A stretch of 64,000 nucleotides of DNA from the NCBI GenBank assembly GCA_000004695.1, contig CM000152.2, forward strand, positions 3,136,001-3,200,000, read 5' to 3'. Positions 945-1,753 of this stretch are shown piece after piece. The notes beneath the pieces are model-generated. The model saw nothing but the letters and a program-made list of their open reading frames with translations, had not been told where the DNA came from and searched no databases. Numbering within the stretch: position 1 is the stretch's first letter; the number at the start of each line of letters is the position of its first letter. The stretch is from Dictyostelium discoideum. Its lineage: Eukaryota. Made by a program: the position numbers and the translations under genes.

Positions 945-948
<4 letters not shown>

Positions 949-1289
949 TCAAAGGAAGTTGCAATATAATCAGCTCTAAGAGAATAACATAAATTTTCTT
1001 CCCAAGTGTAGAAAACAGCATTGAAACCAGTGGTGGTGATATCTTGAGCTTGGACACCACAACGAATTTGGAATGATTTGTCAGGATTTTGACCAGCAAC
1101 ACAATCGATGTGATCCAAAGTTAAGCAAACCTTTGGTGTAGTTCCAAATGGGGCATCGAATTTAACAGGTACAATCACTTCACGTTTACCAACAACTGGT
1201 CTATTCAATAAGCAATCATTACCGGTATATAAGTCTGAACCAGTTTCAATATGACATTTTGTATTTTTTTTTTTAAAAAAATATTTCAA
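945..1289 (-). CDS. Terminal exon encoding an H-type lectin domain, discoidin I/II-like. Partial gene: no upstream discoidin (F5/8 type C) domain exon was found.
   Basis: The ORF translation [30 protein letters not shown]...[27 protein letters not shown] aligns along its whole length with the C-terminal H-type lectin domain of Dictyostelium discoidin I (..[26 protein letters not shown]...[27 protein letters not shown]). The stop is TAA at 945-947. There is no in-frame ATG. The ORF track start is a TTG, and the poly-K stretch comes from an A-run, so an upstream exon or acceptor near 1290-1300 is needed. Confidence 0.6.
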
Positions 1290-1753
1290 TTTGTTCTTGG
1301 AAAAAAAAAAAAAAAGTAAAAAAAAACTTAATTTATACCTCCCCCTTTTTTTTTTCGATTCGAATTTGAGATCTTCGTTGAAATAATTTAATTAATTTAA
1401 ATTTTTTAAGTTCAATTTCCTTAATTGGAAAAAAAAAAATAAAAAAAATAAAAAAAAATATTTTAATTACTAAAAAAAGAAAAATGAATATATAAAACAA
1501 AAAAAAATAAAAAGAAAAAAAAAAAAAAAAAAAAAAGTGTGGTGTGGTATCGCCTAAAAATAAAAATGAAAAAATTTATCCGAGTTTATTTTTAATTTAT
1601 CTTTGTGATGTTACTAATTAAAAAAAATGAAAAAAAAAAAAAAAAAATTATTAATTATTTTAAATTAAAATTAAAATATTAAACATATTATACGCATAAT
1701 TTAGAGTAATGCTTTTTTTTTTTTTTTTATTAACAAGTTAAACTTTCTTTTTT

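Follow-up and report, generated by a model that had tools for sequence, protein, structure and literature searches.

The window that we analysed is a stretch of 64,000 nucleotides from Dictyostelium discoideum AX4, and near its beginning the minus strand carries a reading frame with an H-type lectin domain. The locus is annotated as DDB_G0280223 (gene iliF, protein Q54VN9, XP_641316.1, 121 aa), and the database name of the protein is 'H-type lectin domain-containing protein'. The gene name iliF is taken from a supplementary table (PMC6198379), and 'ili' is short for 'induced after Legionella infection' (PMC6902447). The lectin frame is open from 1391 to a TAA at 947..945. According to Pfam, the H-type lectin domain makes up the C-terminal 100 residues of this open frame, with the H_lectin family PF09458 scoring 73.5 bits (cut-off 24, E 1.5e-20) over profile positions 2-67 of 67. 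The coding part that concerns us most is the following:

945..1253, minus strand: H-type lectin coding remnant of 102 codons plus the stop at 947..945 (CAT ATT GAA ... TTT GAA TAA), read from its sequence as the 3' part of exon 3 of an ancestral discoidin-like gene

The closest solved structure to the frame is discoidin-1 A (PDB 2w94, residues 160-254, E 4e-30), and after it come discoidin II, the Helix agglutinins and coral SLL-2. When the window is searched by tblastn with DscA, using the 2w94_A sequence as the query, the match has 52% identity over 111 aa (1280..948, E 9e-31) and the homology reaches the last residue. The lectin domain coincides with the C-terminus of the protein in Pfam, the structure match and tblastn, as it does in the discoidin family. 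Both sugar-pocket aromatics of DscA, W235 and Y241 (bioRxiv 10.64898/2026.06.18.733164), are kept in the 12-residue AX4 segment that aligns with FYTWNENKVYSL. The original prediction had described a domain which aligns end to end with that of discoidin I at about 50% identity, and the protein and translated searches against the discoidins bear this out, with discoidin-1 A as the best match and discoidin II also matching. It had also described A/T-rich DNA upstream, no DS exon and no in-frame ATG, all of which we find again. GC ranges from 0.07 to 0.24 upstream and from 0.29 to 0.42 in the exon, and it is 0.13 in the flank compared with 0.37 in the lectin remnant; tblastn with DscA and DscE finds no discoidin (F5/8-C, DS) domain in all 64 kb; and there is no in-frame ATG across the entire open lectin frame.

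A word-index protein search with the lectin product gave no match, and a representative protein search returned only distant H-lectins with at most 45% identity. Both of these searches missed discoidin I, although an exact look-up finds discoidin I and many other Dictyostelium proteins in the same collection, so that the two negatives reflect blind spots of the tools and not biology. The exact look-up of lectin products with a TTG start, with a GTG start or with a repaired frame found none on record.

The public gene model of this locus connects the lectin frame with a small exon further upstream:

1834..1848, minus strand: annotated exon 1 (MSPAF), probably spurious; the model with this exon is XP_641316.1

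1296..1833, minus strand: annotated intron of 538 nt with the donor GTAAAG at 1833 and the acceptor CCAAG at 1297..1296, probably not real

Joining MSPAF (1848..1834) to the exon 1295..945 reproduces XP_641316.1/Q54VN9 residue for residue. We enumerated all minus-strand ATG-to-GTA mini-exons in 1290..2800, and the only one which is frame-compatible with CCAAG, the sole plausible acceptor, is MSPAF (ATG TCC CCT GCA TTC and then GTAAAG). An H-lectin-only gene with a tiny, far 5' exon was one of the readings offered in the original prediction, and it matches the public annotation exactly, but the comparative evidence favours the truncated pseudogene that was offered as the alternative. The upstream DS exon which would have made this an ordinary discoidin-like gene was found neither by tblastn nor among the listed mini-exons. 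An alternative model via the AG at 1328 was also considered and is absent from every database checked. Only genome annotations and protein databases record the 121-aa product; it is listed in no Logan assembly or contig, a literature search for DDB_G0280223, Q54VN9 and iliF returned no paper, and the supplements of PMC5282741 and PMC6902447 hold no entry for the gene.

Also in the 90% cluster of Q54VN9 are two longer proteins (260 and 264 aa), which come from two 'Dictyostelium cf. discoideum' assemblies. These are intact orthologues, KAM9985430.1 (260 aa) and KAM9992853.1 (264 aa), whose loci we call L001 and L002. The orthologous proteins (P0121 and P0122) are composed of F5_F8_type_C and H_lectin, whereas the AX4 protein (P0120) has H_lectin only, and P0122 is 61% identical to DscA over its full length, including both domains. 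The intact gene has three exons and two introns. Its lectin part is 93% (L002) and 91% (L001) identical to AX4 at the nucleotide level, without indels. The order of the genes is common to AX4, L001, L002 and L003, the last being a second, chromosome-level D. discoideum assembly (GCA_054883475.1), and runs RPL24e, Cpn60/TCP1-like, the lectin gene, a gene of about 2150-2220 aa, Vps55 and HSP90. The term paralog, which the original prediction had used, has to be withdrawn: the locus is orthologous to an intact gene and has lost its DS domain in place, and it is not a partial duplicate. Two further 'D. discoideum' assemblies, L004 and L005, are the closest to AX4 in the identity of the flanks, followed by L002 and then by L001. 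In a neighbouring coding exon, the divergence of the assemblies named 'D. discoideum' and 'D. cf. discoideum' from AX4 is about 2-4%, and in intergenic DNA it is 6-25%. The distance between L001 and L002 is as large as that of either to AX4, and the two names cover several distinct lineages.

The window contains other genes that deserve a short description. The RPL24 (eL24) gene at 5944..6654 (plus strand) has three exons, the first of which is only 5 nt long (ATGAA and then GTATGT), and its spliced product of 127 aa does not differ between AX4, two wild D. discoideum assemblies and one 'cf. discoideum' assembly. At 2804..3215 (plus strand) a three-exon gene encodes the 79-aa membrane protein DDB_G0280225 (Q54VN8; Pfam Spec3, 34 bits), which is conserved to D. 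purpureum and Polysphondylium violaceum and is uncalled in several new Dictyostelium assemblies (L001-L006). Towards the other end of the window, at 58120..58593, 60112..60585 and 62023..62496 (plus strand), there are three tandem ORFs of 157 aa, each with a CBM49 domain; they are spaced by about 1.9-2.0 kb and form a tandem gene array.

The alignment of AX4 with the intact loci and with L004 and L005 identifies several features of the ancestral gene around the lectin remnant:

1300..1337, minus strand: retained core promoter, TATAAATTA (1337..1329) and then a T-run (1326..1301), aligned base for base with gggtataaattaagtttttttattactttttttttttttt of the intact L002

1258..1299, minus strand: retained ancestral 5'UTR, CCAAGAACAAATTGAAATA...AAAAATACAAA, homologous to the interval from the T-run to the ATG in L002, L004 and L005

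1246..1257, minus strand: ancestral start codon fused to the lectin frame, with the ATG at 1257..1255 and a 3-codon ORF, ATG TCA TAT TGA

1537..1560, minus strand: C/A-rich block TTTTTAGGCGATACCACACCACAC, kept in AX4 and L002 and still discernible in L001, L004 and L005; possibly a regulatory element belonging to the ancestral promoter

1885..1921, minus strand: upstream block CCAATCATTTCTTTGTGTCAATGAGTCCATC, nearly identical in all five genomes aligned

880..944, minus strand: 3' flank with a poly(A) run and then TTTATTCTTTATTAAATAAATAAAAATAA, the motif past the A-run being kept in L001, L002, L004 and L005; likely the polyadenylation region

The minus strand 5' of the domain reads GGTATAAATTAAG-T9-AC-T15-CCAAGAACAAATTGAAATATTTTTTTAAAAAAAAAAATACAAA-ATG-TCA-TAT-TGA. 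A TATA box followed by an oligo-dT run is the usual core promoter of Dictyostelium genes. In a nucleotide alignment AX4 is nearly base for base the same as the promoter and leader sequence of L002, gggtataaattaagtttttttattacttttttttttttttcccaagaacaaattaaaataaatagtttttaaaaaatacaaaATG. The ATG at the end of this leader stands in good context (ACAAAATG) immediately 5' of the domain and was overlooked in the original prediction. The alignment pairs it with the start codons of L001, L002 and L005 and also with the exon-3 '...caaaaatcagttcatattgaaactgg'. It is one base out of frame (ATG-T-CAT, +1 relative to the lectin frame), and its product is Met-Ser-Tyr-stop. A continuous ORF from the gene's own start codon is thus missing in AX4, where ATG TCA TAT TGA ends at once and the lectin frame lacks an ATG. 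Further upstream, GC-containing blocks at 1885..1921, 1995..2045 and 1537..1560 (minus strand) are conserved in AX4, L001, L002, L004 and L005, an example of the C/A-rich sequence being GGCGATACCACACCACAC, and they are surrounded by an otherwise A/T-only, divergent intergenic region of 1.5 kb. From this conservation we suggest that the three blocks are probably regulatory elements. An Rfam scan of window positions 1..3600 gave no match.

Past the ATG, the homology resumes in exon 3 at 'TCATATTGAAACTGG'. The distance from the ATG to '...caaaaatcagTTCATATTGAAACTGG' is 688 bp in L002 and 655 bp in L001, and the AX4 deletion amounts to about 0.65-0.69 kb compared with the intact orthologues. What is lost in AX4 comprises exon 2, the two introns, the remainder of exon 1 and that part of exon 3 which encodes the DS domain. 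In BLAST alignments the homology to L001 and L002 begins at window position 1254, and the junction can be placed at the 'TC' of 1254..1253. Here AX4 reads ACAAAATGTC and then ATATTGAAACTGG; the 5' parent (L001, L005) reads ACAAAATGTC and then TAC, and the 3' parent AAAAATCAGTTC and then ATATTG. The two breakpoints have a 2-nt microhomology, TC, in similar ACAAAA(A)T contexts, and a microhomology-mediated deletion would be expected to leave such a pattern. L003, an independent assembly, has exactly the same junction and the same ORF throughout, and differs only in homopolymer lengths.

The locus is transcribed late in development and with enrichment in spores. In a 0-24 h series the transcript takes the values 0, 1.6, 9.3, 9.0, 12.2, 77.7 and 134.6, and it is found at 54.3 in prespore against 10.3 in prestalk cells (Parikh et al. 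2010, tabulated in PMC6198379 supplement 5). RNA-seq tables by cell type give a TPM of 19.9 for spore, 0.25 for cup, 0.17 for stalk and 0.15 for vegetative cells. This late, spore-enriched transcript suggests that the retained promoter is active. Neither Q54VN9 nor the gene ID occurs in the supplements of a life-cycle proteome from 2026, which is weak evidence against a protein in the case of a small, spore-enriched one.

The lectin ORF of AX4 shows no stop or indel over its 102 codons. Compared pairwise with the intact orthologues, this ORF has a dN/dS of 0.19-0.24, which is also the level found when the two intact genes are compared with each other. On the AX4 branch we count about 5-6 synonymous versus 3-5 non-synonymous changes, which is fewer non-synonymous changes than under the neutral expectation (p ~0.02). 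Over the 226 columns common to five sequences, AX4 has only 3 private substitutions (2 non-synonymous, 1 synonymous) and no indel, compared with 15 in L004 and 11 in L005, where changes shared by these two are counted together with their own (relative-rate p 0.005 and 0.03 against AX4). The dN/dS values, the branch pattern and the few private changes suggest that the AX4 copy was under purifying selection until recently. At the level of sequence, the low number of changes fits a very recent deletion and a continuing selection on a translated lectin equally well.

The gene has had a different fate in neighbouring lineages. In L004 and L005 the ATG is changed to ATA and the TATA box to TATGAAT, intron 1 has a (TAA)n expansion, neither exon 2 nor the part of exon 3 for the DS domain is left, and the lectin domain itself contains 3-5 indels. 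None of these lesions is common to AX4, so the inactivations were independent. The long (TAA)n microsatellite in the intron 1 remnant lies at about 5100..5330 in L004 and about 5010..5230 in L005, and is absent in AX4, L001 and L002. In D. citrinum only fragments are present at the syntenic place and in D. dimigraforme only a faint 3' trace, while D. firmibasis and the rearranged region of D. purpureum yielded nothing. To judge from these comparisons, the gene is evidently dispensable and has been lost repeatedly.

We consider it likely that the iliF locus is a recently truncated, still transcribed unitary pseudogene with a doubtful gene model. The AX4 locus is the orthologue of a three-exon, discoidin-I-like gene with DS and H-lectin domains. 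One deletion in the AX4 lineage, of the size given above, took away the whole stretch which lay between the start codon and the last codon ahead of the lectin domain. The ATG itself stayed in place, as did the native TATA box, T-run and 5'UTR, and the retention of the native promoter can explain why the locus is still transcribed late and with spore enrichment. The transcript would then start at the native promoter and be neither spliced nor translated into a lectin: translation from the native ATG would stop after Met-Ser-Tyr and the lectin ORF lacks an AUG of its own, so the RNA is most likely non-coding. As in a unitary pseudogene, there is an intact syntenic orthologue (L001, L002) and a disabling lesion in comparison with the intact gene. 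We infer the loss of function only from the frame, and the remnant ORF is without secondary lesions. A partial duplication of discoidin I was rejected as an origin, as full-length orthologues lie at the syntenic position and the locus still has their promoter and ATG.

The main alternative is that the annotated model is real, with a transcript start upstream of 1848, splicing from 1833 to 1296 and an H-lectin-only protein of 121 aa. In that case a single-domain lectin like the Helix pomatia agglutinin would have arisen by domain loss. The model is deposited in GenBank and UniProt, the locus is transcribed, and the donor GTAAAG leaves phase 0 where the acceptor gives phase 0, so that the frames are compatible. 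The ORF is intact with a low dN/dS and few private changes, the residues equivalent to W235 and Y241 of DscA are conserved, and stand-alone H-lectins of about 100 aa do exist (HPA with 101 aa; P0013, P0026, P0078 and P0104 with 97-99 aa). Against the model, the intron spans the ancestral TATA box, the T-run and several conserved upstream blocks and has its acceptor within the ancestral 5'UTR. The acceptor is AAG, whereas all six unambiguous introns that we read in these loci end in TAG (5/6) or CAG (1/6), and at 538 nt the intron is long compared with a mean of about 146 nt in this genome. The ATG of MSPAF is missing at the homologous site in both intact-gene genomes, L001 and L002, the GT donor is missing in L001 as well, and L004 has one base less between the ATG and GTAAAG. 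Moreover, the model translates the former, poly(A)-rich 5'UTR (1258..1299) as the 13-14 N-terminal residues. L002, L004 and L005 have a TAA in the same leader frame, which AX4 lost via a small indel; this left the upstream frame open and made the annotated model possible. The product is also absent from the Logan contigs, from sources besides genome annotations and from the life-cycle proteome supplements. On balance we regard the annotated model as unlikely, and it was probably gene prediction that gave rise to the 121-aa database protein, whose exon 1 and 538-nt intron bridge the ancestral promoter. It is similarly doubtful that the domain loss created a functional, spore-enriched and infection-responsive mini-lectin of the HPA type, by means of a neo-exon or an unconventional start, although this would explain the absence of ORF decay.

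There are two further explanations, and we give both of them very little weight. The lectin ORF might be translated from the unspliced native transcript, either by a +1 frameshift at UAU UGA A or by non-AUG initiation. The UGA stands three codons past the native ATG, and a ribosome that passed over one base at this point would be in the lectin frame exactly from its first conserved residues on, with Met-Ser-Tyr-Glu-Thr-Gly... as the product; the intact ORF is compatible with translation, and the geometry of a shift at a stop codon resembles antizyme or RF2 sites. On the other hand, a chance deletion explains the junction, the intact orthologues need no frameshift, and there is no conserved stimulatory element, nor could there be one at a junction that is unique to AX4. 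We know of no precedent for frameshifting three codons after initiation, and find this route highly improbable. Slightly less probable still is an artefact of assembly or sequencing which hides a full-length or in-frame AX4 gene. The A/T-rich Dictyostelium DNA is prone to homopolymer errors and the window differs from L003 in several A- and T-runs, but the junction lies outside a homopolymer, it is identical in GCA_054883475.1 together with the coding part, and what is missing is about 0.7 kb and not one base.

That the locus is annotated was already known, and what our analysis adds is its origin and its probable mis-annotation. If the pseudogene reading is correct, the record of DDB_G0280223/iliF/Q54VN9 should be corrected, as a function-unknown entry in the proteome of a model organism would in fact be the stump of a discoidin-I-like gene. 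The locus would also be a natural example of gene death under way, with an active promoter, an untouched ORF and a junction that is resolved to single bases. Neighbouring lineages are losing the gene independently, and the intact version in sibling species allows for a functional comparison. In the study of discoidins, which are cytosolic lectins, it would count as one more member of the family that is missing from the laboratory strain.

Among known systems, the closest is discoidin I (DscA/DscC/DscD, PDB 2w94), to which the intact orthologue P0122 is 61% identical across both domains. The AX4 copy differs from it by lacking the N-terminal F5/8-C domain and an in-frame start codon, and the ancestral iliF gene differs by its two introns and its separate, single-copy locus. 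Discoidin I is expressed in early development, whereas the expression of iliF is late and spore-enriched. The D. cf. discoideum genes KAM9985430.1 and KAM9992853.1 are orthologous by position and have the promoter, 5'UTR, start codon and lectin sequence in common with AX4, but theirs are intact three-exon DS and H-lectin genes, while AX4 has the internal deletion and the frameshift. Helix pomatia agglutinin (2ce6) and coral SLL-2 (3wmp) belong to the same Pfam family and have about 100 aa, as the AX4 ORF would have if it were translated; they are only weak matches to this ORF, with E ~1e-3, and both are secreted and have a start codon and a signal peptide of their own. Transcribed unitary pseudogenes are likewise single-copy, have an orthologue that is intact in sister lineages, carry a disabling lesion and retain promoter activity. 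In comparison with these, iliF would be a very young case, in which the remaining ORF is still without secondary lesions.
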